Shown one piece after another: positions 11,986-21,661 of a DNA stretch of 64,000 nucleotides. The stretch's first letter is position 1; each line of letters begins with the position of its first letter. The DNA is from an uncultured Phycisphaerales bacterium (GTDB taxonomy: Bacteria > Planctomycetota > Phycisphaerae > Tepidisphaerales > Tepidisphaeraceae): positions 3,584,001 to 3,648,000 of the forward strand of contig CAVWVQ010000003.1 in NCBI GenBank assembly GCA_963758525.1, written 5' to 3'. The position numbers and the translations under genes were made by a program. Under the pieces are notes generated by a model. That model saw only the letters and a list, made by a program, of their open reading frames with translations, did no database searches and was not told where the DNA came from.

Positions 11986-12012
11986 AGCGATTCAACAGAC
12001 CGCGCCAGCCTC

Positions 12013-13560
12013 TTATCGAGCAAGTCGATCTTCCATCACTTTCCGCATGGTGTCCAGCGGAGCGACTTGATCTGTCCACGCTTGGAATTGACTGGCCGCC
12101 TGGCGCAGAAACATTTCGACTCCGGAAATCGTCTTGGCGCCCGCGGCCTCGGCCTGCCGCAGGAACTTGGTGCGCTGCGGATTGTACACCGCGTCGAAGA
12201 CGAGCGTCTCGGCCGTAAAGTTGGCCGGCGATGTCCCCAGAGGGCTCGCGTTCACGTTCGGGTGCATTCCGACTGACGTTGTATTGATGTAAATGTGACA
12301 GCAACTGTCGCAGAGTTTGTCCATCGGCCCGGCAACAACCTTGCCGCTGCGCCCGGTGAATTCCGCTGCCAGTGCTTCGGAGCGTTCGTGCGTGCGGTTG
12401 TAGATGACGACCGTGGCGCCGTAATGAGCCAGGGCGGCGACGGCCGTGCGTCCGGTGCCTCCGGCTCCGATCACCGCAATGCGATAGTCCGCCAGTCGCT
12501 CGCGGGTGATTTGCAGCGCGGAGGTGATGCTGTCGAGGATGGCGGCATAGTCGGTATTCAGCCCGCGCAGGACGCCGGCGCTGTCGATCAGAATAGTGTT
12601 TACCGCCCCGATCCGGTGCGCCAGCTCCTCGACATCCGCATCGCGCTCCTTCAGATAGCGCAGAGCGTTTTCCTTGTGCGGAATCGTGATCGAAAGCCCG
12701 GAAAGGTGCAGCGGCTTAAACGCGAGGAACGATTCCATGAAAGCTTTGAAGCTTTCGTATCCTTCGTTGACGAGCAACGGGAGATAGACACCGTCGTAAC
12801 TGATGCGGTCAAACGCGGCGTTGTGGATGGCGGGGGACATTGAATGTGCGATGGGCGAACCAACGACGCCAAAGACTTTGGTCCTGGGTCCAAGTGCGTC
12901 CCAACGATAGAGGCGCTTCATGTCGGCGATGGTGATCTGTCCCGGAGCGCTTTCGTGGCCGCGATCGAACGACGCGAACGTGAGAAACGCACCGAATTTT
13001 TTTGCCAGCACCCGGCTGATCAGCCCTGCCTCGCCCATGCACAGGGCGATCGTCGGCTTCTGTTTTTGCTCGAGCAGCTCGAACGCTTCGATGTTGTCAC
13101 GAATCGTGCGAGCTTTCCACGCGATTTTGATGATCGGAGCGGGATGCGCGTTCATCTCCAGAATGCAGTTGCCCAGCCGATCCGGCCGGCCGTCAAAATC
13201 GTGGGAGCTGAGAATGACGGGCAGGTTCAGTGATCCCAGATCAACCGCCGAAGCGGCGGCCAGTTCAAAATCGACGTAAGCGGCTTGACCCTGGCTGAGA
13301 AGGGCGAGGAAGTCGAATCGCTCGCGATCATCGAGCCGGGAGCGGCCGCCTTCCCATGCTGGCCGGCATGTGAGAATGCACGGCAGCGGCGCCGTCCGAA
13401 GAAAGCCGCGAAGCGCGGTCAATGCCACGTCGTCGTCCCTGGGGAATTCGTCCAGCCTCAACTCGAGAACGTCGGCGCCGGCCTCGCTGGCGAGCAGCGC
13501 AGTGCGCTGGACCGCAACAATATCCGAAGTGACAAAGATAGGAACGCAGAGCCGTGTCAT
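12013..13560 (-). CDS. aroDE: Bifunctional type I 3-dehydroquinate dehydratase / shikimate dehydrogenase
   Basis: N-terminal ELRLD, SSHDF and APGQ (AroD); C-terminal HSMSPAIHN, TIPHK, GAVNT, NTD and GAGG (AroE). Confidence 0.93.
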   Translation of the reverse strand: MTRLCVPIFVTSDIVAVQRTALLASEAGADVLELRLDEFPRDDDVALTALRGFLRTAPLPCILTCRPAWEGGRSRLDDRERFDFLALLSQGQAAYVDFELAAASAVDLGSLNLPVILSSHDFDGRPDRLGNCILEMNAHPAPIIKIAWKARTIRDNIEAFELLEQKQKPTIALCMGEAGLISRVLAKKFGAFLTFASFDRGHESAPGQITIADMKRLYRWDALGPRTKVFGVVGSPIAHSMSPAIHNAAFDRISYDGVYLPLLVNEGYESFKAFMESFLAFKPLHLSGLSITIPHKENALRYLKERDADVEELAHRIGAVNTILIDSAGVLRGLNTDYAAILDSITSALQITRERLADYRIAVIGAGGTGRTAVAALAHYGATVVIYNRTHERSEALAAEFTGRSGKVVAGPMDKLCDSCCHIYINTTSVGMHPNVNASPLGTSPANFTAETLVFDAVYNPQRTKFLRQAEAAGAKTISGVEMFLRQAASQFQAWTDQVAPLDTMRKVMEDRLAR

Positions 13561-13586
13561 GCAATCGTCGCTGTTCAGGCACCAAC

Positions 13587-13652
13587 GTAGGGCGGGATTC
13601 ATCCCGCCGGCTCATCGCGGCAGACCGGTCGGCTGCACGAATCCCGCCCTGC
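13587..13652. repeat. GTAG-type REP doublet, family C (degenerate second half)
   Basis: GTAGGGCGGGATTCATCCCGCC ... GAATCCCGCCCTGC; full copies at 56893, 57105 and 57332. Confidence 0.8.
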
Positions 13653-13688
13653 ACAATCGCCGCCGCATGGCGACAACTCAGGGCGACT

Positions 13689-14543
13689 TCACGCTCCTAC
13701 CAGCGATTCGATCAATGCTTTAGTCGATTCGCTCGCTTCACACAGCGGCAGACGCAGCTCGCCGGAGTCGCGGCCGACGACTTTCATCGCGTGCTTGATC
13801 CCGACGGGATTGCCGTCGATGAACAACGAGCGAATCAGCGGGAAGAGTCGGTGATGGACGGAAGCGGCCTTCTTCAAATCGCCCGCCAATGCGGAGGCGG
13901 TCAGTGCTTTCACATCGGCCGGCAGCAGATTCGACACGACGCTGATCACTCCCTTGGCGCCGATCGACATGAGCGGAAGCGTCAGCGAATCATCGCCGCT
14001 GATGATGGCGATGTCGCAGAGCGACGCGATTTCGCTGGCCATGTCGAGCGATCCGGTGGCTTCCTTGATTGCGACGATGTTCGGGTGTTTTGCAAGCCGC
14101 GCGACGGTTTGGGCGGCCATCGTGATCCCGGTTCGGCCGGGAATATTGTAAAGCACGATCGGAAGATCGACCCGGTCGGCCAGCGTCATGAAGTGACGGT
14201 AGAGCCCTTCCTGCGACGGTTTGTTGTAATACGGATTAACGGACAATCCGGCGGTCGCACCAGTCTTGCGTGCGAAGGAATGAAGCTCAATCGCCTCGCT
14301 GGTGGCATTGGCGCCGACGCCGGCAATCACGGGAACGCGCCCCTTTACGGTCTGCACCGTGATTTCAATGACGCGTTCGTGTTCCTGGAACCCGAGCGTG
14401 GGGGATTCGCCGGTGGTGCCGACCGGGATCAGGCCGTCAATGCCTCCCTTGATCTGATATTCGATCTGCTCGCGCAGGCGAGCCTCGTCGAGGCGCCCTT
14501 CGTTGAAGGGGGTGATCATTGCCGTCATCGCGCCGCTGAACAT
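13689..14543 (-). CDS. dapA: 4-hydroxy-tetrahydrodipicolinate synthase
   Basis: GTTGES, PYYNKP, LYNIPGRT, IKEA and SGDD motifs. Confidence 0.96.
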   Translation of the reverse strand: MFSGAMTAMITPFNEGRLDEARLREQIEYQIKGGIDGLIPVGTTGESPTLGFQEHERVIEITVQTVKGRVPVIAGVGANATSEAIELHSFARKTGATAGLSVNPYYNKPSQEGLYRHFMTLADRVDLPIVLYNIPGRTGITMAAQTVARLAKHPNIVAIKEATGSLDMASEIASLCDIAIISGDDSLTLPLMSIGAKGVISVVSNLLPADVKALTASALAGDLKKAASVHHRLFPLIRSLFIDGNPVGIKHAMKVVGRDSGELRLPLCEASESTKALIESLVGA

Positions 14544-14590
14544 CGTTGATCCTTTCCGGAAGCCAAAGCATGACTATACGTGGCCGCAAG

Positions 14591-14752
14591 CGAGAAGCCA
14601 GAAGTCAGGGGGAAGGAGCCAGAAGCCAGGAGTCAGAAGTCAGGAGTCAGGAGTCAGTGTCCCGAAGATTCCTTCAGTCTTCTGTCTTTCACTCCTTGCT
14701 TCTGGCTCCTGGCTTCTGACTCCTGGCTTCTTGCCCCTGACTCCTGACTTCT
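14591..14752. repeat. Heptamer foldback array (AGRAGYC)n ... (GRCTYCT)n
   Basis: Tandem AGAAGCC/AGGAGTC/AGAAGTC units followed by their reverse complements. Confidence 0.85.
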
Positions 14753-14757
14753 TCCCT

Positions 14758-15471
14758 TCACTTGTTGATCAGCACCTTCATTTCCCGAACCGCTTCGCGC
14801 AAGCCGATGAAAACCGCCCGACTGACGATGGCGTGCCCGATGTTCAGCTCCGTCATGTCGGGAAGCGAGGCGATCGGGCCGACGTTGTGATAATTGAGAC
14901 CATGCCCGGCGTGAAGGCGCAGCCCGCGATCGCGAACAAGTTGGGCTCCGTTTGCGAGGCGGGCTAGTTCATCGATGATGCGAGCCGCATCGGCGTTGGC
15001 GTATTCGCCGGTGTGCAGCTCGATCGCGTCATACCCCTGGTCGGCGGCCGCGTCGATCTGCCTTTCGTCGGGGCCGATGAAAGCCGAAACAAATACGCCC
15101 GCGTCCTTGAGGCGCTTGACTGCGTCCCCGGATCGCTCGGCATGCGCGAGCAGATCGAGACCCCCTTCGGTGGTAATCTCCTCGCGGCGCTCCGGCACGA
15201 TCGTCGCCTGGTCAGGGAGCGTGCGCACGGCGATATCAACGATCTCCGGCACAAGGCTCATTTCCAGGTTGAGCTTGCAATGCACCGATCGGCGCAGCAG
15301 TTCCACGTCGCGATCATTGATATGCCGGCGATCTTCGCGGAGGTGCACAGTGATGCCGTCGGCTCCGCCGAGTTCCGCTTCAACGGCGGCCCAGACCGGA
15401 TCAGGTTCGTAAGTTTTCCGCGCCTGACGCAGTGTGGCAATGTGGTCGATGTTGACGCCAAGTTCGATCAT
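14758..15471 (-). CDS. pdxJ: Pyridoxine 5'-phosphate synthase
   Basis: LGVNIDHIATLRQAR, HLREDRRHI, TTEGG, ELHTG, AGHGL and ELNIGH motifs. Confidence 0.97.
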   Translation of the reverse strand: MIELGVNIDHIATLRQARKTYEPDPVWAAVEAELGGADGITVHLREDRRHINDRDVELLRRSVHCKLNLEMSLVPEIVDIAVRTLPDQATIVPERREEITTEGGLDLLAHAERSGDAVKRLKDAGVFVSAFIGPDERQIDAAADQGYDAIELHTGEYANADAARIIDELARLANGAQLVRDRGLRLHAGHGLNYHNVGPIASLPDMTELNIGHAIVSRAVFIGLREAVREMKVLINK

Positions 15472-15535
15472 TGCGGGGGATTGTAATGCGGGGATTGGGG
15501 GATGCCAGAAGGGGGGGAGAGGCAGGAAAAGACAA

Positions 15536-15657
15536 AGGAACGAAGGCACGGAGGCACGAAGGCACGAAGGGGAGGACGCTGCGCGGCGGCGGAGTGTATG
15601 TACTTCTTCCTGCCTTCCTTACCCTTCGTGCCTTCGTGCCTATGTGCCTTCGTGCCT
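15536..15657. repeat. Octamer foldback array (GGCACGAA)n ... (TTCGTGCC)n
   Basis: Tandem octamers with an inverted second arm; a second copy lies at 50846-51011. Confidence 0.85.
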
Positions 15658-15683
15658 TTCTCATTCTTCCCTCAATTTTGTTC

Positions 15684-15712
15684 TTGCAATTTCATGATTG
15701 GTTGGCAATAAT
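15684..15712 (+). promoter_or_regulatory. Putative sigma70 promoter of the leader-tRNA-rtcB transcript
   Basis: TTGCAA-17 nt-AATAAT in an AT-rich patch. Confidence 0.6.
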
Positions 15713-15747
15713 TCAACCTTAGCTTCGTTTGTGTCGAAAGAGGTAAC

Positions 15748-15837
15748 GTGCAACACTTGAGAATAACTATTAGCAGGGCCTGCCGGAAATCGCTTCAAGA
15801 GCGATTCGTCGGCATGGATCGACGCCCAGCGCACTGA
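15748..15837 (+). CDS. Putative leader peptide (29 aa, MQHLRITISRACRKSLQERFVGMDRRPAH)
   Basis: AAAGAGG SD 4 nt before GTG; six Arg codons of five kinds plus ATA, ATT, AAA, ATG and GAT; the stop overlaps alternative hairpins. Confidence 0.6.
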   Translation: MQHLRITISRACRKSLQERFVGMDRRPAH

Positions 15838-15940
15838 CTCCTCGCCTTTTCGGCCGGGAGTTCTTCCCGGCTGCCTGACACTTTTTTTTGTGATGCCCGG
15901 GAAGAATTGAATCGCAGCCGCGATCGCGCTGGCGGGCGTT
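15836..15940 (+). promoter_or_regulatory. Attenuator-like alternative hairpins with a T8 tract
   Basis: 15836-15846/15852-15862 competes with 15851-15859/15865-15873; T8 at 15882-15889. Confidence 0.5.
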
Positions 15941-15998
15941 CTTCGTTTTGTGGCTCGAAATGTCGGGGAAACAGGCGTTTCCCATTCGGAGATACTGC

Positions 15999-16070
15999 GC
16001 GCTGTTAGCTCAGAGGAAGAGCATTCCGTTGATAACGGAAAGGCCGGAGCGTCGAGAACTCCACGGCGCA
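15999..16070 (+). tRNA. tRNA-Ile(GAU) with an aberrant T arm (possibly pseudo or tRNA-like)
   Basis: Acceptor GCGCTGT/ACGGCGC, D stem GCTC/GAGC, anticodon arm TTCCG-TTGATAA-CGGAA. The T arm GGAGC-GTCGAGA-ACTCC lacks GTTCR. Confidence 0.8.
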
Positions 16071-16073
16071 TAC

Positions 16074-16147
16074 GCATCGATGGTCCAAATGGATAGGGCG
16101 CCGGACTACGAATCCGGACGATGGAGGTTCGACTCCTCCTCGATGCA
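16074..16147 (+). tRNA. tRNA-Arg(ACG)
   Basis: GCATCGA/TCGATGC acceptor, CCGGA-CTACGAA-TCCGG, GGAGG-TTCGACT-CCTCC, A20 present; no encoded CCA. Confidence 0.95.
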
Positions 16148-16164
16148 TTAGGTTGAGGCGAACT

Positions 16165-16200
16165 ATGGAACTCAGACGAAAACGGTGCTTCTGCAACTAG
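16165..16200 (+). CDS. Putative micro-ORF MELRRKRCFCN between the two tRNA-Arg genes
   Basis: GAGG SD 6 nt before ATG; run AGA CGA AAA CGG; TAG ends 1 nt before tRNA-Arg(UCU). Confidence 0.45.
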   Translation: MELRRKRCFCN

Positions 16201-16201
16201 A

Positions 16202-16275
16202 GCACCGGTAGCTCAACGGAACAGAGCAGCTCTCTTCTAAAGAGCTTGATGGGGGTTCGAATCCCTCCCGGTGCA
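16202..16275 (+). tRNA. tRNA-Arg(UCU)
   Basis: GCACCGG/CCGGTGC acceptor, GCTCT-CTTCTAA-AGAGC, GGGGG-TTCGAAT-CCCTC; no CCA. Confidence 0.95.
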
Positions 16276-16296
16276 TCGCAGCCTGCGGGCTGCCGC

Positions 16297-16369
16297 GCAC
16301 CGATAGCTCAACCGGCAGAGCTGCCGGCTTTTAACCGGAAGGTTGCGGGTTCGACTCCTGCTCGGTGCA
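16297..16369 (+). tRNA. tRNA-Lys(UUU)
   Basis: GCACCGA/TCGGTGC acceptor, CCGG-CTTTTAA-CCGG, GCGGG-TTCGACT-CCTGC; no CCA. Confidence 0.95.
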
Positions 16370-16371
16370 AA

Positions 16372-16445
16372 GGTTCGTTAGCTCAGATGGACAGAGCGCC
16401 GGCTTGTCACGCCGAAGGTCACGGGTTCGATCCCCGTACGGACCG
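16372..16445 (+). tRNA. tRNA-Asp(GUC)
   Basis: GGTTCGT/ACGGACC acceptor, G73 discriminator, CGGC-TTGTCAC-GCCG, ACGGG-TTCGATC-CCCGT. Confidence 0.95.
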
Positions 16446-16456
16446 CTGAAGAAAAC

Positions 16457-16530
16457 GGGAGCGTAGCTCAGCAGGCAGAGCGGGGGCCTCATAAGCCCCA
16501 GGCCGTTGGTTCGAATCCAACCGACTCCCA
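16457..16530 (+). tRNA. tRNA with CAU anticodon (Ile2 or elongator Met), bulged acceptor stem
   Basis: GGGAGCG/CG(A)CTCCC acceptor, GGGGC-CTCATAA-GCCCC, GTTGG-TTCGAAT-CCAAC. Confidence 0.88.
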
Positions 16531-16553
16531 TGTGCGCATGCGAAGAACGTCCC

Positions 16554-16658
16554 GTACCACGGGTTTCCAACCCGTGCGAGCAGCGCCAGAAGAAAGAAAT
16601 TAGTATTACCGGGCATTGGTCTACCACGCCAACTGCACGGGTTGGAAACCCGTGGTAC
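16554..16658. repeat. REP-like doublet, family B
   Basis: GTACCACGGGTTTCCAACCCGTG ... CACGGGTTGGAAACCCGTGGTAC; copies at 21765 and 52222. Confidence 0.9.
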
Positions 16659-16676
16659 GGTGTGTACGGGTGAATC

Positions 16677-18188
16677 ATGGCAGACGAATCGGAAAACTCC
16701 TCATCGGCGATCATCCCCACGGGCGAAGCGACGGGATTTCTGCCGGTGCGCAACGGCGCCGGCGGGAAGCCGATCACCGTCATTGGAACGCAGGCAATCC
16801 GCGACACGTTCGATTCGGTCTGTCTTCAACAGGCGATCAACTCGCGTCTGGCCCCGGGCGTCACGGATGTCGTGCTGAATCCCGATGCTCACCGCGGATA
16901 CGGCGCTCCGGTCGGGTCGGTGATCGTTTCGCCCACGCATATTTACCCGGGGCCGGTCGGAGTCGACATCAAATGTTCGATGAGCCTGTTGCAGTTCGAT
17001 CTTCCGGCCGAGGCAGTGGCGGGAGAGAAGATTCGCCGTGCGCTGATCAATGCGATTTTGGAGCGGACGCCGACCGGCGCGGGCAAGGGACTGCGCGACG
17101 CGCGCAAGGCGCGCCGCGTGAGTCCGCAAATCGGCAAGATGGCGGTGGTGGAAGGGGCTTCGCCGGCGGTCTGCGCTGCGCTGGGAGTTCCCGCGGAGTG
17201 GGCGTCGCGCTGCGAAGACGCGGCTCACGTCGGACACGACGACACGCCTGACGCTTTGGCGATGCGCCTTGATCGCATGCTTGCCAATGAACCGCGTGGC
17301 AAGTTCGAGTCGAGAATGAGCCAGATCGGAAGCTATGGCGGAGGGAATCACTTTGGCGAATGTGAGATCGTGCAGGTTGCCGACGACGACAGCATGCGCG
17401 CGGTGGCGGATGTGTTTGGCCTGCGCGACGGGCACGTCGCGTTTCTCTCGCATTGCGGGTCGCGCGGTTTCGGACATCAACTGGCAAGCGGTCAGTTCCG
17501 CTCGTTGCAGGAACGGTTTGCCAAGTGGTCCATCCCGCTGCCGGGAAATGATCGCGAGCTGGTCTACGCGCCGCTGGGAACTCCCGAGGCCGATGCGTAC
17601 ATTGACGACATGAGCCTGGGGGCGAACTTCGCAACGGTCAACCACATGGTGATCAATGCGCTGGTGCTCGAAGCATTCCAGGAAGTGATTCCGGGTGTGA
17701 CGGGCCGGCTCGTCTATTTCATCAGCCACAACATTGCGCGAAAGGAAGTCGTCGACAACCGGATTGCGTGGGTTCATCGCAAGGGAGCGACGCGCGCGTT
17801 CCCGGCGGGGCATCACGCGCTGAAGAACACGCCGTTCGCCCAGAGCGGGCATCCGATCCTGCTGCCGGGGAATCCGCGCGAAGGGTCGATCGTGATGGTT
17901 GCGCGCCCCGAGGCGGCCAAGAGCGTCTACAGCGTCAACCACGGCGCCGGCCGGCGTCTGGGCCGGCGCGATGCGATTCGCAAGCTGGATCAGGCCGAGG
18001 TGGACGCGGGCCTTGCCGAGTGCGATGTGATGAGCAATTGCCGGCAATATCCGAAGGACAAAGCGCCGGATGCGTATAAGGATTTTGGCGAAGTCGTGCG
18101 GTCGGTAGAGCTCGCAAAGCTGGCGCGCGGCGTCGCGCGGCTCAAGGCGCGGTTTGTCATTAAGGATTCATCGGACGCTGATGATTGA
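16677..18188 (+). CDS. rtcB: RtcB-family RNA ligase
   Basis: PDAHRGYGAPVG, VGVDIKC, GSYGGGNHFGE, HCGSRG, HNI, HRKGAT and NHGAGR motifs. Confidence 0.95.
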   Translation: MADESENSSSAIIPTGEATGFLPVRNGAGGKPITVIGTQAIRDTFDSVCLQQAINSRLAPGVTDVVLNPDAHRGYGAPVGSVIVSPTHIYPGPVGVDIKCSMSLLQFDLPAEAVAGEKIRRALINAILERTPTGAGKGLRDARKARRVSPQIGKMAVVEGASPAVCAALGVPAEWASRCEDAAHVGHDDTPDALAMRLDRMLANEPRGKFESRMSQIGSYGGGNHFGECEIVQVADDDSMRAVADVFGLRDGHVAFLSHCGSRGFGHQLASGQFRSLQERFAKWSIPLPGNDRELVYAPLGTPEADAYIDDMSLGANFATVNHMVINALVLEAFQEVIPGVTGRLVYFISHNIARKEVVDNRIAWVHRKGATRAFPAGHHALKNTPFAQSGHPILLPGNPREGSIVMVARPEAAKSVYSVNHGAGRRLGRRDAIRKLDQAEVDAGLAECDVMSNCRQYPKDKAPDAYKDFGEVVRSVELAKLARGVARLKARFVIKDSSDADD

Positions 18189-18233
18189 CACGGAGCCGAG
18201 GATTCGGTTTCATGCTTTTCTGGCGGTATTCTT

Positions 18234-18343
18234 GTGGCACGGGCATCCTGCCCGTGTTAAAGGCGTGGTGCAGAAGAAAAAATCTGATATCAGCGTCTCT
18301 CTTCTGAACCACGCGGCTAACACGGGCAGGATGCCCGTGCCAC
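18234..18343. repeat. REP-like doublet, family A
   Basis: GTGGCACGGGCATCCTGCCCGTG ... CACGGGCAGGATGCCCGTGCCAC. Confidence 0.9.
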
Positions 18344-18382
18344 GACGATGACAAAATCAGCTTTTCGGCGAAGGAGCTTGCA

Positions 18383-19408
18383 ATGGGTCGGCCGGTCACA
18401 TTATTCACGGGTCAGTGGGCGGATCTCTCGTTTGAGACGGTTTGCGAAAAGGCGAAGAAATTTGGCTATGACGGAATCGAACTGCCGTGTTGGGGCGATC
18501 ATTTCGAGGTCGACAAAGCGCTGAAAGACAAAGGCTACTGCAAGGGACGCTGGGACATTCTGCGTTCACATGGCCTCAAGGCGTTTGCCGTTTCAAATCA
18601 TCTCGTCGGACAGGCGGTGTGCGACAATATTGATGAACGGCATCAACTGATTTTGCCTCCTGATGTCTGGGGCGATGGCGATCCGGAGGGCGTTCGCAAA
18701 CGCGCGGCGCTGAAGATGATTGACACCGGTAAGGCGATCCGCGCGTTCATCGACGCCGCGCCGGAGCCGACCGGATTCCCGGCGGTGATGAATGGGTTCA
18801 CCGGCTCGAGCATCTGGCATTCTATCTACGCGTTTCCGCCGACCGATCAGAAATACTGGCAGAAGGGCTTTGACGATTTTGCCGCGCGATTCACGCCCAT
18901 TCTCAACGAGCTGGACAAGGTCAACGTCAACTTCGGTCTGGAAGTGCATCCGACGGAAATTGCGTTCGACATCAGCTCCGCCCAGCGGGCGATCGACGCG
19001 GTGAAAGGTCACAAGCGCTTCGGGTTTAATTACGACCCCTCGCACCTGGGCTACCAGCACGTCGATTACGTGAAATTCATCCGGACGTTCGGCAAGCGGA
19101 TTTTCCACGTCCACATGAAGGACGCCTGGTGGGGCCATGGCGACGGGACGACGGGCGTATTCGGCGGTCACACGAGCTTTGCCGATCCATCCCGCTATTG
19201 GGATTTCCGCAGCCCCGGTCGCGGCGACGTCAATTTTGAAGACATCATCGTCGCGCTCAACGATGTGGGCTATCAGGGACCGCTATCGGTTGAATGGGAA
19301 GACAGCCGGATGGATCGCGAGCATGGGGCGACCGAGGCTGCCGCACTGGTGCGCCGCCTTGACTTCAAGCCGTCGGCAATTGCGTTTGACGCGCAATTTG
19401 ACCGGTAG
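18383..19408 (+). CDS. Sugar phosphate isomerase/epimerase (xylose-isomerase-like TIM barrel)
   Basis: [37 protein letters not shown] and SVEWED motifs. Confidence 0.88.
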
Positions 19409-19624
19409 GCGGGAAGCATCCCGCAGATTTGCAATAAGGATTTGCGATCGCGTGACACGGACATCTTGTCCGTGTTAACGGATCGCAATGGAATAATCGC
19501 TCGATGCGGCGATTTTGGCGGCTCCGCGTCGTCAACATGGGCGGGTCAACCATGCCGCGGGGGGCAGATGATCCCCTGCCGTCTGTTTTACACTCCGCGC
19601 AAAAAGAGGACAATTGACCCCCAT

Positions 19625-21661
19625 ATGACGGAAACCAAATCGCAAGCGGGAACGGCACTGGTCGACCTGGATCCGTGGCTCGAGCCGCATCGCGGAAGAC
19701 TGGCCGATCGACACGCGCACTATAAGGCGGCCCTGGGCAAATTTGACGCGACCGGCGGCCTGCTGGGCCAGATCAGCAAAGGGCATCATTATTTCGGCTT
19801 CAACCGTGGCGAGCTATTTGGAAAACAGGGAGTGTGGTACCGCGAATGGGCGCCGGGCGCGCTGCAGCTTCGCGTCGTGGGCGACTTCAATAACTGGGAT
19901 CGCTGGGCGAATCCGCTGGTGCGCGACGAGTTTGGCGTCTGGAGCTTGTTTCTGCCGGATGAGAAATTCGCCGGCAAGCTTGTGCATGGCAGCAAGGTGA
20001 AGGTGCATGTCATCGGCCATGACAGCAGCGGCACGGATCGGATTCCGGTTTATATCCGCCGCGTGTTGCAGGATTCCTCAAACGATTGGGCGGGCGTCTA
20101 CTGGGATCCGCCGGAGCGTTTCATTTTCAAAAACGATATCCCGCGGATGCGCGGCGGTTTGCGAATTTATGAAGCGCACGTCGGGATGGCGCGCGAGGAG
20201 CAGCGGCTGGGCACGTACGCGGAGTTCACTCGCGACGTGCTGCCAAGAATTGCGAAGCTTGGATACAACGCGGTGCAGTTGATGGCGGTGATGGAGCATC
20301 CCTATTACGGCTCGTTCGGATATCACGTCAGCAGCTTCTTCGCTCCCTCCTCCCGATTCGGCACGCCGGAAGATTTAAAATTGCTCGTTGATGCGGCTCA
20401 TGGGATGGGCGTGCGCGTGGTGATGGACATCGTGCACAGCCACGCGGTCAAGAACATCCGCGAGGGGCTCAACATGTTTGACGGGACCGATCATCAGTAT
20501 TTTCACGCCGGTCCGCGCGGGCAGCACCCGGCGTGGGATTCACTGCTTTTCGATTACACGAAATACGAAGTGCAGCGCATGCTGCTGAGCAATATCCGAT
20601 ACTGGCTCGAAGACTACCGCTTCGACGGATTTCGTTTTGACGGCGTTACGAGCATGATCTACCGCGATCATGGCCTGGGGACGGGGTTCGGCAGCTATGA
20701 CGACTATTTCAGCGGCAACGTCGACGAAGACGCGCTGATCTATCTCAAGATGGCCAACGAACTGGCGCACACGATTCGCCCGGACGCGATCACCATCTCC
20801 GAAGACGTCTCGGGAATGGTCGGCATGGCCCGGCCCGTCGCCGAAGGGGGGCTGGGCTTCGATTATCGTCTGGCGATGGGCGTGCCGGATAACTGGATCA
20901 AACTGCTCAAAGAGAGACGCGATGAGGACTGGAATCTGGGCCAGCTCTATTCAACGCTGTTGAACCGCCGGCATGCGGAGAAGCATATCGGCTACGCCGA
21001 GAGTCACGACCAGGCGCTGGTCGGCGATAAGACGATCGCCTTCTGGCTGATGGACAAGGAAATGTACTGGCACATGAACAAAGCCAGCCACAGTCTGGTC
21101 ATCGATCGCGGCCTGTCACTTCACAAGATGATCCGTCTCATCACCTTCAGCCTTGCCGGCGAAGGCTATCTCAACTTCATGGGCAATGAGTTCGGCCACC
21201 CCGAATGGGTCGATTTCCCGCGCGAGGGGAACAATTGGTCGCTTTATTACGCCCGCCGGCAGTGGTCTCTCTCAGATCATCCTGACCTGCATTACCAGGG
21301 ACTCAACCAGTTTGACCACGCGATGCTTGCGCTGGACGAGCCTTATGGCTTGCTCAACTCGACGCTTATCGAGCAGTTGATGGTGCATGAAGACATGAAG
21401 GTGTTGGTCTACCGGCGTGGGCCGTTGGTTTTCGCGATGAACTTCCACCCGACCGAGTCATACCCCGATCTGCGGATCGGCGTCCCCGATCCGGCGAATT
21501 ACGCGCTGGTGCTCAATTCCGATGACGCGAAGTTCAGCGGTTTTGGGCGGGTCGCCGAGGGGATGGTGTATCCCCGGGAGACGGTGCCGATGCACGGGCG
21601 CGAGCAGAGCGTGCGGCTGTATCTGCCGAGCCGCAGCGCGCAGGTGTTGGCGCCGAAGTAA
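19625..21661 (+). CDS. glgB: 1,4-alpha-glucan branching enzyme (GH13_8-like)
   Basis: IYEAHVGM, YYGSFGYHV, FDGFRFDGVTSM, EDVSGM, YAESHDQALVGDKT and NFMGNEFGHPEW motifs. Confidence 0.95.
   Translation: MTETKSQAGTALVDLDPWLEPHRGRLADRHAHYKAALGKFDATGGLLGQISKGHHYFGFNRGELFGKQGVWYREWAPGALQLRVVGDFNNWDRWANPLVRDEFGVWSLFLPDEKFAGKLVHGSKVKVHVIGHDSSGTDRIPVYIRRVLQDSSNDWAGVYWDPPERFIFKNDIPRMRGGLRIYEAHVGMAREEQRLGTYAEFTRDVLPRIAKLGYNAVQLMAVMEHPYYGSFGYHVSSFFAPSSRFGTPEDLKLLVDAAHGMGVRVVMDIVHSHAVKNIREGLNMFDGTDHQYFHAGPRGQHPAWDSLLFDYTKYEVQRMLLSNIRYWLEDYRFDGFRFDGVTSMIYRDHGLGTGFGSYDDYFSGNVDEDALIYLKMANELAHTIRPDAITISEDVSGMVGMARPVAEGGLGFDYRLAMGVPDNWIKLLKERRDEDWNLGQLYSTLLNRRHAEKHIGYAESHDQALVGDKTIAFWLMDKEMYWHMNKASHSLVIDRGLSLHKMIRLITFSLAGEGYLNFMGNEFGHPEWVDFPREGNNWSLYYARRQWSLSDHPDLHYQGLNQFDHAMLALDEPYGLLNSTLIEQLMVHEDMKVLVYRRGPLVFAMNFHPTESYPDLRIGVPDPANYALVLNSDDAKFSGFGRVAEGMVYPRETVPMHGREQSVRLYLPSRSAQVLAPK

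Follow-up and report, generated by a model that had tools for sequence, protein, structure and literature searches.

A conserved leader reading frame as a likely sensor of ribosome speed and putative regulator of tRNA output in a soil bacterium of the Tepidisphaeraceae

The window analyzed here is a stretch of 64,000 nucleotides from an uncultured Phycisphaerales bacterium of the family Tepidisphaeraceae (assembly GCA_963758525.1, contig CAVWVQ010000003.1, positions 3,584,001 to 3,648,000 of the forward strand), in which a first-pass annotation made from the letters alone had singled out a short open reading frame (ORF) ahead of a group of tRNA genes. We found this ORF to be a real, conserved leader and not a chance ORF. 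Homologous leaders end at the same point, directly before a near-invariant element referred to below as the switch, and their amino acid composition follows the content of the tRNA array located behind them. Judging from these sequences, the leader is a likely sensor of ribosome speed, through which this soil bacterium would adjust its tRNA output; as to how, we lean towards a ribosome-mediated transcription attenuator of the spare-tRNA array that it precedes. The parts of the leader region, numbered from the first letter of the window, are the following.

15684..15712 (+), predicted sigma-70-like promoter, TTGCAA-17 nt-AATAAT
15724..15738 (+), 5' hairpin TTCG..CGAA immediately 5' of the Shine-Dalgarno (SD) motif, read from the sequence
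15737..15743 (+), SD-like AAAGAGG with a 4-nt spacer to the start codon, from the sequence
15748..15837 (+), leader ORF, GTG start, 29 codons, MQHLRITISRACRKSLQERFVGMDRRPAH, TGA stop at 15835-15837, from the ORF list
15779..15817 (+), hairpin within the 3' half of the ORF, minimum free energy fold
15838..15860 (+), hairpin P1, CTCCTCGCC (strand A, 15838-15846), loop TTTTC and GGCCGGGAG (strand A', 15852-15860), from folding
15851..15873 (+), H23, alternative hairpin A':B (CGGCCGGGA / TCCCGGCTG), from folding with A omitted
15861..15906 (+), hairpin P2, TTCTTCCCGG (strand B, 15861-15870) with CCGGGAAGAA (strand B', 15897-15906), from folding
15834..15906 (+), match to covariance model R1 (the conserved switch), 66.7 bits, E 3e-13

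The ORF reads as it had been quoted, from the SD-like motif to the stop codon, and does contain five of the six Arg codons (AGA, AGG, CGG, CGA twice and CGC) as well as a cognate codon for each array anticodon (6/6). Coverage of all six anticodons, the feature on which its reading as a sensor had been built, is reached by 2.3% of 8626 random ORFs of 27-31 codons from this genome, or by 0.8% under strict decoding. The same coverage is found in 25 of 106 homologous leaders at other loci and is thus a family trait, not specific to the window copy.

The family was collected starting from a BLAST comparison of positions 15660-15998 with 61 related genomes. The conserved part amounted to only ~34 nt, starting right at the stop codon and 89-94% identical, and was found in eight further matches (six relatives plus one more place in this genome), all but one upstream of tRNA genes; matches L006, L009 and L010, from other families and lacking tRNAs nearby, were rejected. 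Exact-pattern scans returned 109 loci in metagenomes and 80 in species genomes; 46 of the latter were dropped as chance matches in unrelated taxa, the true ones being titled Tepidisphaeraceae, Tepidisphaerales, Phycisphaerales or Planctomycetota. De-duplication left 119 unique leader-switch instances. An ORF with a median length of 30 codons ends at the switch in 112 of the 119, and five of the seven misses have less than 60 nt of upstream sequence.

An alignment of the leader region (A1) displays a conserved -10 box, the 5' hairpin, TGTCGATGGAG, an ATG or GTG 5-7 nt further on, a variable ORF and its stop codon, directly followed by CTCC..GCC..GGCCGGGAGTTCTTCCCGG..CCGGGAA. The near-invariant core GGCCGGGAGTTCTTCCCGG, 19 nt in length, is abutted by the leader stop codon: of 111 leaders, 76 have no gap between stop and CTCC and 19 have a gap of 1 nt, and the first base of P1 in the window is the one right after the stop. 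Read in frame, the 24 codons ahead of the stop lack interruptions in 111/111 leaders, partly by construction, compared to 53/111 and 35/111 in the other two frames. Leaders start with ATG (96/111) or GTG (15/111), and 98 of the 111 are preceded by an SD-like motif; among the 98 scored, the spacing between the end of this motif and the start codon is 6 nt for 56 leaders and 4 nt for 5. A promoter-like family consensus, CTTGC..17..GGAATAAT, sits at a fixed distance from the leader: of 100 unique upstream regions, 35 have a -10-like motif at position -42 relative to the start codon and 51 have it within -45..-41; scanning revealed three promoter-like sites where 0.4 were expected, including the one at 15684..15712. 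The predicted promoter thus places the short, SD-led ORF near the 5' end of its transcript, as in an attenuator. In the closest homologue, L120, the ORF has the same length as in the window and leaves ATA, ATT, AAA, CGA, ATG, GAT, CGA and CGC unchanged, such that 8/8 shared cognate codons are kept while most other codons differ.

Model R1 matched 53/141 Tepidisphaeraceae genomes (23/72 of the high-quality ones) and returned a single weak match (28.6 bits) in the 130 genomes of other families within a class-wide sample of 151. The genome under study harbors three copies, one ahead of each of its three tRNA arrays, the other two being located at C3:3763784-3763853 (+) and C3:44230-44301 (-). Neither a T-box nor any other Rfam family matched positions 15720-15998, even at E<=1.

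Nearly all instances with enough downstream sequence precede tRNA arrays of fixed gene order and up to 28 genes. The order is Val, Ile, Arg-ACG, Lys-CTT, Arg-TCT, Lys-TTT, Leu-CAG, Arg-CCG, Ala, Leu-GAG, Leu-CAA, Ser-CGA, Ser-GCT and Asp, followed by Phe, Gly-GCC, Gly-TCC, Thr-CGT, Met, Gln-CTG, Gln-TTG, Asn, Glu, Pro, Tyr, Trp, Cys and His. Many reduced versions exist in the family, one of which is formed by the six genes of the window.

15999..16070 (+), tRNA-Ile(GAU)-like gene with an atypical T arm, Rfam tRNA 55.6 bits
16074..16529 (+), tRNA-Arg(ACG), Arg(TCT), Lys(TTT), Asp(GTC) and a tRNA with anticodon CAT, ARAGORN and Rfam
16677..18188 (+), rtcB (RNA repair ligase), 147 nt past the last tRNA, Pfam RtcB E 3e-100

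The window array tRNAs share 60-78% identity with their same-anticodon counterparts in this genome and are therefore supernumerary, as are those of long arrays described elsewhere (PMC8421152, PMC4758250). The family arrays as a whole are dense arrays of supernumerary tRNA genes that duplicate the housekeeping set. Those of this genome hold 6 (window), 15 (L202, C3:3763784-3766477) and 3 tRNAs (L011, C3:43672-44301), have no anticodon in common, and jointly comprise 24 of the 28 full-array genes. The codons of each array are commonest in its own leader (9 versus 3 and 2, 14 versus 11 and 9, and 7 versus 0 and 0). This arrangement suggests that the arrays were duplicated and then lost genes reciprocally, each leader being re-tuned in turn.

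The dependence of leader composition on array content was assessed at loci with complete arrays, truncated ones being excluded; array contents are subject to some tRNAs being missed by ARAGORN and to some arrays continuing past inserted genes. Across 40 de-duplicated loci, the fraction of leader residues cognate to the array was 0.480, compared to 0.398±0.010 upon shuffling of the pairings (z 8.5), and for the 21 arrays of at most eight tRNAs it was 0.270 versus 0.185 (z 6.5). Codon-level cognate sets yielded z values similar to those of this amino-acid-level permutation test. L144 and L022 were kept in the permutation test and dropped from the positional and synonymous-codon tests because their arrays continue past an inserted IS66 transposase or EF-Tu gene. 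Cognate enrichment was 1.91x at codons -4..-8, counted from the stop, and 1.25x at codons -1..-3.

Binomial tests on 15 reduced arrays, with the pooled leader composition as background, gave a Fisher combined p of 4e-13. The leader of L168 has 21/32 residues cognate to its Val, Ser, Gly, His and Cys array (background 0.24, p 8e-7), and that of L011, in this genome, 11/28 cognate to Thr, Tyr and Trp (p 1.7e-4). Ahead of an array consisting of two tRNA-Gln genes, 9 of 39 leader residues are Gln (L034, p 1.3e-4); ahead of a lone tRNA-Ala, 9 of 27 are Ala (L127, p 2.5e-4). Lower enrichments were seen in L012 (p 0.007), L044 (p 0.009), L020 (p 0.03) and L120, whose array is that of the window (p 0.033). 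Among loci with a variant core that had been held out, L246 carries MTFVQSQRQQQQQQQSLLQR ahead of tRNA-Gln (p 1e-8) and L256 has a p of 0.005, while L238 and L241 showed no leader-array match. Control codons enriched for the relevant amino acids are thus present at the level of the family. The proposal that the leader is a sensor is in our view well founded, given the conserved, fixed position of the leader together with a composition that follows its own array.

The region following the stop codon is predicted to adopt mutually exclusive folds. In the window, P1 alone has a folding energy of -10.6 kcal/mol and P1 together with P2 reaches -31.4 kcal/mol (z -4.5); H23, which excludes both P1 and P2, has -16.9 kcal/mol when strand A is left out. 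B and B' form a 10-nt inverted repeat with 100% complementarity, and within P2 lies an AU-rich hairpin or T8 tract (15882-15889). Pairing amounts to 99% for P1 and 87% for P2 across 96 aligned copies, with almost no variation. Variant cores found with R1 (GGGAGCATCCCGG, GGGAGCCCCCGG) keep the A':B and B:B' complementarity even though the loop differs, the sequence between the paired stretches being GCTTT, GTTAT, AGCAT or AGC, and one of them carries the compensatory pair ATCCCGG/CCGGGAT. Covariation was detected in the AU-rich hairpin inside P2, where 0/5000 permutations reached the observed value. The same approach of pairing each strand with its own or a permuted partner gave -7.4 versus -5.56 kcal/mol (z -8.7) for the 5' hairpin of 104 leaders, and -19.6 versus -16.9 kcal/mol (z -12.7) for the hairpins in the 3' half of the ORF. 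The window copy of the latter (15779..15817) may be a polymerase pause site or a helix unwound by the ribosome. No trp-like pairing partner for the 3' end of the ORF was seen by eye within the conserved core.

Attenuation by a translating ribosome would account for these features as follows. Given the dimensions of the ribosome footprint, strand A would be covered when the A site holds the stop or any of the final 2-3 codons, but not when the ribosome is held at codon -4 or earlier. A ribosome that has reached the last codons or the stop would thus cover A, which begins at the next base, whereupon A' would pair with B to form H23 and transcription would stop short of the tRNAs. If the ribosome were instead held up at codons specifying amino acids of the array, A would stay free; P1 would then form, P2 would lock, and the polymerase would read on. 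Such a race between the ribosome reaching the end of the ORF and the folding of P1 fits the peak of cognate codons at -4..-8, where a stalled ribosome would halt shortly before A, and their low at -1..-3. The array would serve as a back-up supply, turned on upon difficulties in decoding its own amino acids, which fits its neighbors RtcB, RNA ligase and EF-Tu. That the mechanism is attenuation is likely on this sequence evidence; its polarity and termination step we infer, because no canonical terminator accompanies the switch. A wider proposal, to which we give somewhat less than an even chance, is that these tRNA genes regulate themselves by attenuation in response to tRNA damage or depletion, through a switch devoid of canonical terminator and a leader that is rewritten as the array gains and loses tRNAs. 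An operon of spare tRNAs, together with any RtcB, RNA ligase or EF-Tu partner, would then be on exactly when decoding of the amino acids it serves breaks down.

A number of observations weigh against this interpretation. The match between the leader of the window and its own six-gene array is weak (11/28 cognate, background 0.25, p 0.074). Seven of the 15 reduced arrays, mostly Arg-ACG-led, showed no enrichment, Arg making up 12% of all leader residues, and the p-values overstate independence insofar as the loci are related. Nor did we find mirroring at the level of anticodons: cognate synonymous codons numbered 240 of 444, compared to 242.8 expected (z -0.29). The leader-array match is at the amino acid level and not at the anticodon level, and the earlier view that the leader is a multi-tRNA rather than an amino-acid sensor is not supported; a match of this kind cannot separate tRNA supply from charging. 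With regard to the RNA, covariation neither supports nor rejects P1, P2 and H23, because their pairs barely vary, and the invariance of the core would suit the doubly constrained strands of a two-state switch and a protein or DNA site equally. An extension of H23, in which the P1 loop pairs with GAAAG after B, was rejected, as it showed no covariation (cognate -17.35 versus permuted -17.30 kcal/mol, p 0.35). Finally, a terminator scan revealed no terminator-like site at the window switch, so that an intrinsic terminator as one of the alternative folds, usual in attenuators, is missing. The tail after H23 is A-rich (consensus GAAAGUAAUC, 10 nt, AU 63%), and a T4 run occurs in only 51/119 P2 loops, usually 6-14 nt past H23; a U tract as the terminator tail of H23, which holds in some loci only, was rejected as a general explanation. 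Canonical terminators are rare throughout this genome, with U-tract terminators little enriched generally. The end of P2 lies 2-7 nt ahead of the first tRNA (Val) in at least seven loci, leaving no room for a further terminator.

The switch might also work with the opposite polarity, a reading that we consider unlikely and that nonetheless has several points in its favor. P1 followed by UUCUUCCC would be the terminator, and only a pace-keeping ribosome on the stop codon would prevent its formation, so that slow decoding would shut tRNA synthesis in an amino-acid-specific, stringent-like control. TTCTT is found directly past P1, and among the hairpins that follow long ORFs in this genome, only 2.3% carry at least four T in the next 5 nt. 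The dimensions of the expressome would place the polymerase ~33-35 nt past the stop when a ribosome in contact with it has the stop in its A site, the expected release point, and a leader-array match at the amino acid level suits a charging sensor. This model, however, leaves no role for the conserved H23 and P2 and implies positive feedback when tRNA is scarce. The otherwise intact variants L243, which heads a 16-tRNA array, and L245 have CAT or CC in place of the U-rich stretch while keeping A':B and B:B', and long arrays elsewhere have been described as silent during growth, with induction under translational stress (PMC8421152). We thus favor H23 as the off state and P1 plus P2 as the on state, with stalling leading to read-through, because this uses all three conserved pairings, because the two variants lose the U-rich stretch after P1 but retain H23 and P2, and because the resulting feedback would be homeostatic. 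The RNA-repair and EF-Tu neighbors, together with the stress-induced array of Anabaena that is co-regulated with rtcB (PMC8421152), argue in the same direction.

It is quite improbable, in our estimation, that no transcriptional switch is at work and that the core is instead a binding or processing site, such as one for RNase P or E close to the first tRNA, a protein operator, or a recombination site by which leaders spread, the ORF being translated to protect or stabilize the 5' end or to make a small peptide. The core is invariant beyond the needs of pairing, most copies also share the H23 loop GTTCT, and the core forms an imperfect palindrome (CCGGGA-5 nt-TCCCGG), all of which would suit a site of this kind. 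So would the missing canonical terminator, the short distance from P2 to the first tRNA, and the duplication of leaders ahead of sub-arrays, as in L043/L044 on one contig and in the three copies of this genome. Left unexplained would be the way in which leader amino acids follow array content and the fixed 0-1 nt distance between stop and P1, and the peptides differ too much in sequence to represent a conserved protein product. That the ORF arose by chance in the intergenic spacer, a caveat raised at the outset, has in its favor that 105 ORFs of at least 25 amino acids overlap positions 12000-20000 and that the SD spacing is short (4 nt), but is refuted by the end point shared by 112/119 loci despite near-random divergence inside the ORF, by the frame-specific openness of the leaders, and by the cognate codons kept in L120.

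Regarding the surroundings of the leader in the window, pdxJ lies upstream of the array in divergent orientation. The interval between pdxJ and the array promoter (15508-15671) contains tandem octamers (GGCACGAA-like) and their inverse, with 44-nt arms that are 89% complementary; apart from spurious miRNA-type matches on this inverted repeat, Rfam at E<=1 returned tRNAs only. Of the six tRNA genes behind the ORF, ARAGORN calls five, missing the Ile-GAU-like gene at 15999-16070 also at relaxed thresholds of 85-95%. The T arm of this tRNA reads GGAGC GTCGAGA ACTCC, with G replacing T54 and the closing pair mismatched (C-A); the GTCGAGAACTCC form of its T arm is present in 15/119 related loci as well. 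Between the last tRNA and rtcB (16552-16660), two 26-nt arms flank a 57-nt loop in a perfect inverted repeat whose 18-nt core occurs 72 times and full arm 10 times in this genome, and which we therefore regard as a dispersed REP- or MITE-like repeat. The rtcB gene, on the same strand, is part of the context of the array and may or may not be co-transcribed with it. A search for sequencing runs containing 15560-16700 found no RNA runs; the matches were DNA metagenome contigs alone, with at most 12% of its words.

Other loci of the family share some of these neighbors. RtcB adjoins the array in the window, L120, L123, L164 and L125. An RNA ligase gene (PF09414 plus OB fold, 343 amino acids) begins 24-25 nt past the last tRNA in L085 (305-1336, -) and L112 (263-1294, -), and EF-Tu genes are located within or directly behind leader-headed arrays on the same strand in L150 (2006-3208, -), L022 (4234-5430, +) and, after Arg-CCG, L155. 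A small ORF of 77-86 amino acids with its own SD and a VRF(G/A)G.SFDVP motif follows the terminal tRNA-His of several arrays (L044:4169-4402, L048:5485-5718, L070:6614-6874 and L148:1262-1519, -); its L044, L048 and L070 copies, those searched, had no Pfam match. Likewise without Pfam match are ORFs of 186-281 amino acids behind tRNA-Gln in L027, L081, L129 and L153. Transposases have inserted just past the leader or inside the array, as exemplified by ISL3 in L122 (200-1423, -) and IS66 in L144 (1840-3348, +). No tRNA lies within reach of the leaders L007, L028, L033, L122, L138, L139, L142 and L146, which are followed by unrelated or transposase genes; all of these except L122 have an intact leader-switch and no tRNA within 1.4-3.5 kb downstream. 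In L138, a Gln-rich leader precedes a xylose-isomerase-like TIM-barrel gene of the same family as the gene behind rtcB in the window (18383-19408). Elsewhere in this genome, beyond the window, five tandem and partly overlapping tRNA-Ser(GGA) calls were noted on the minus strand at C3:4444824-4445528.

How individual bacterial tRNA genes are controlled, and why spare arrays are silent, are largely open questions, and the case that has been studied, that of Anabaena, is described as relying on a promoter operator. In a full-text search assessed at the level of its listing, we found no published description of leader-peptide attenuation of tRNA genes, such control being described there for amino-acid genes only. 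The words "leader" and "attenuat" have no occurrence in the main texts of PMC8421152, PMC4758250 and PMC5966550, nor has "terminator" in that of PMC8421152. If our interpretation is correct, a translated leader that co-evolves with its downstream tRNAs would carry classical attenuation beyond amino-acid supply into the tRNA pool and explain how spare arrays stay quiet until needed. The element would be a compact, retargetable sensor of decoding speed and a case of regulated termination in a phylum, the Planctomycetota, in which canonical terminators are scarce. Arrays reduced to Gln, to Ala, to Thr/Tyr/Trp or to other sets, each with a matching leader, represent a natural experiment amenable to testing with reporters.

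Among known systems, T-box riboswitches are similar in being cis-acting RNAs that read tRNA status ahead of translation-related genes. They differ in having no ORF, whereas one is present here without any Rfam T-box match at E<=1, and the core of the present element is the same whatever the content of the array, which leaves it without a specifier. Leader peptides attenuate amino-acid operons in the cases of trpL, hisL, thrL, ilvL, leuL and pheL, and also pheST. The leaders described here have in common with them a short SD-led 5' ORF, control codons enriched a few codons before the stop, overlapping hairpins starting at the stop that here are predicted to be mutually exclusive, and, as in thr and ilv, multivalency. 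Unlike in those operons, the controlled genes are tRNAs and not enzymes, the leader tracks whichever tRNAs the array retains, from 1 to ~20 amino acids, and the switch has no hairpin-plus-U terminator and a polarity that we infer. As in attenuators responding to slowed translation, such as antibiotic-resistance leaders and the topAI upstream ORF (PMC12121999), the leader ORF would report the progress of the ribosome to an RNA switch, and the untranslated default fold (P1 plus P2) would equal the stalled state; here, in contrast, no conserved arrest-peptide motif is present, composition is tied to the downstream tRNAs, and the target is a stable RNA. The long tRNA array of Anabaena sp. PCC 7120, reported to be silent, induced by translational stress and co-regulated with rtcB (PMC8421152), resembles the present arrays in its length, its supernumerary tRNAs and its links to translational stress and rtcB. 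Its control has been attributed to direct repeats over the -10 box and transcription start site and to a putative repressor (PMC8421152), whereas the arrays of the Tepidisphaeraceae are predicted to be governed by a translated leader and an RNA switch.

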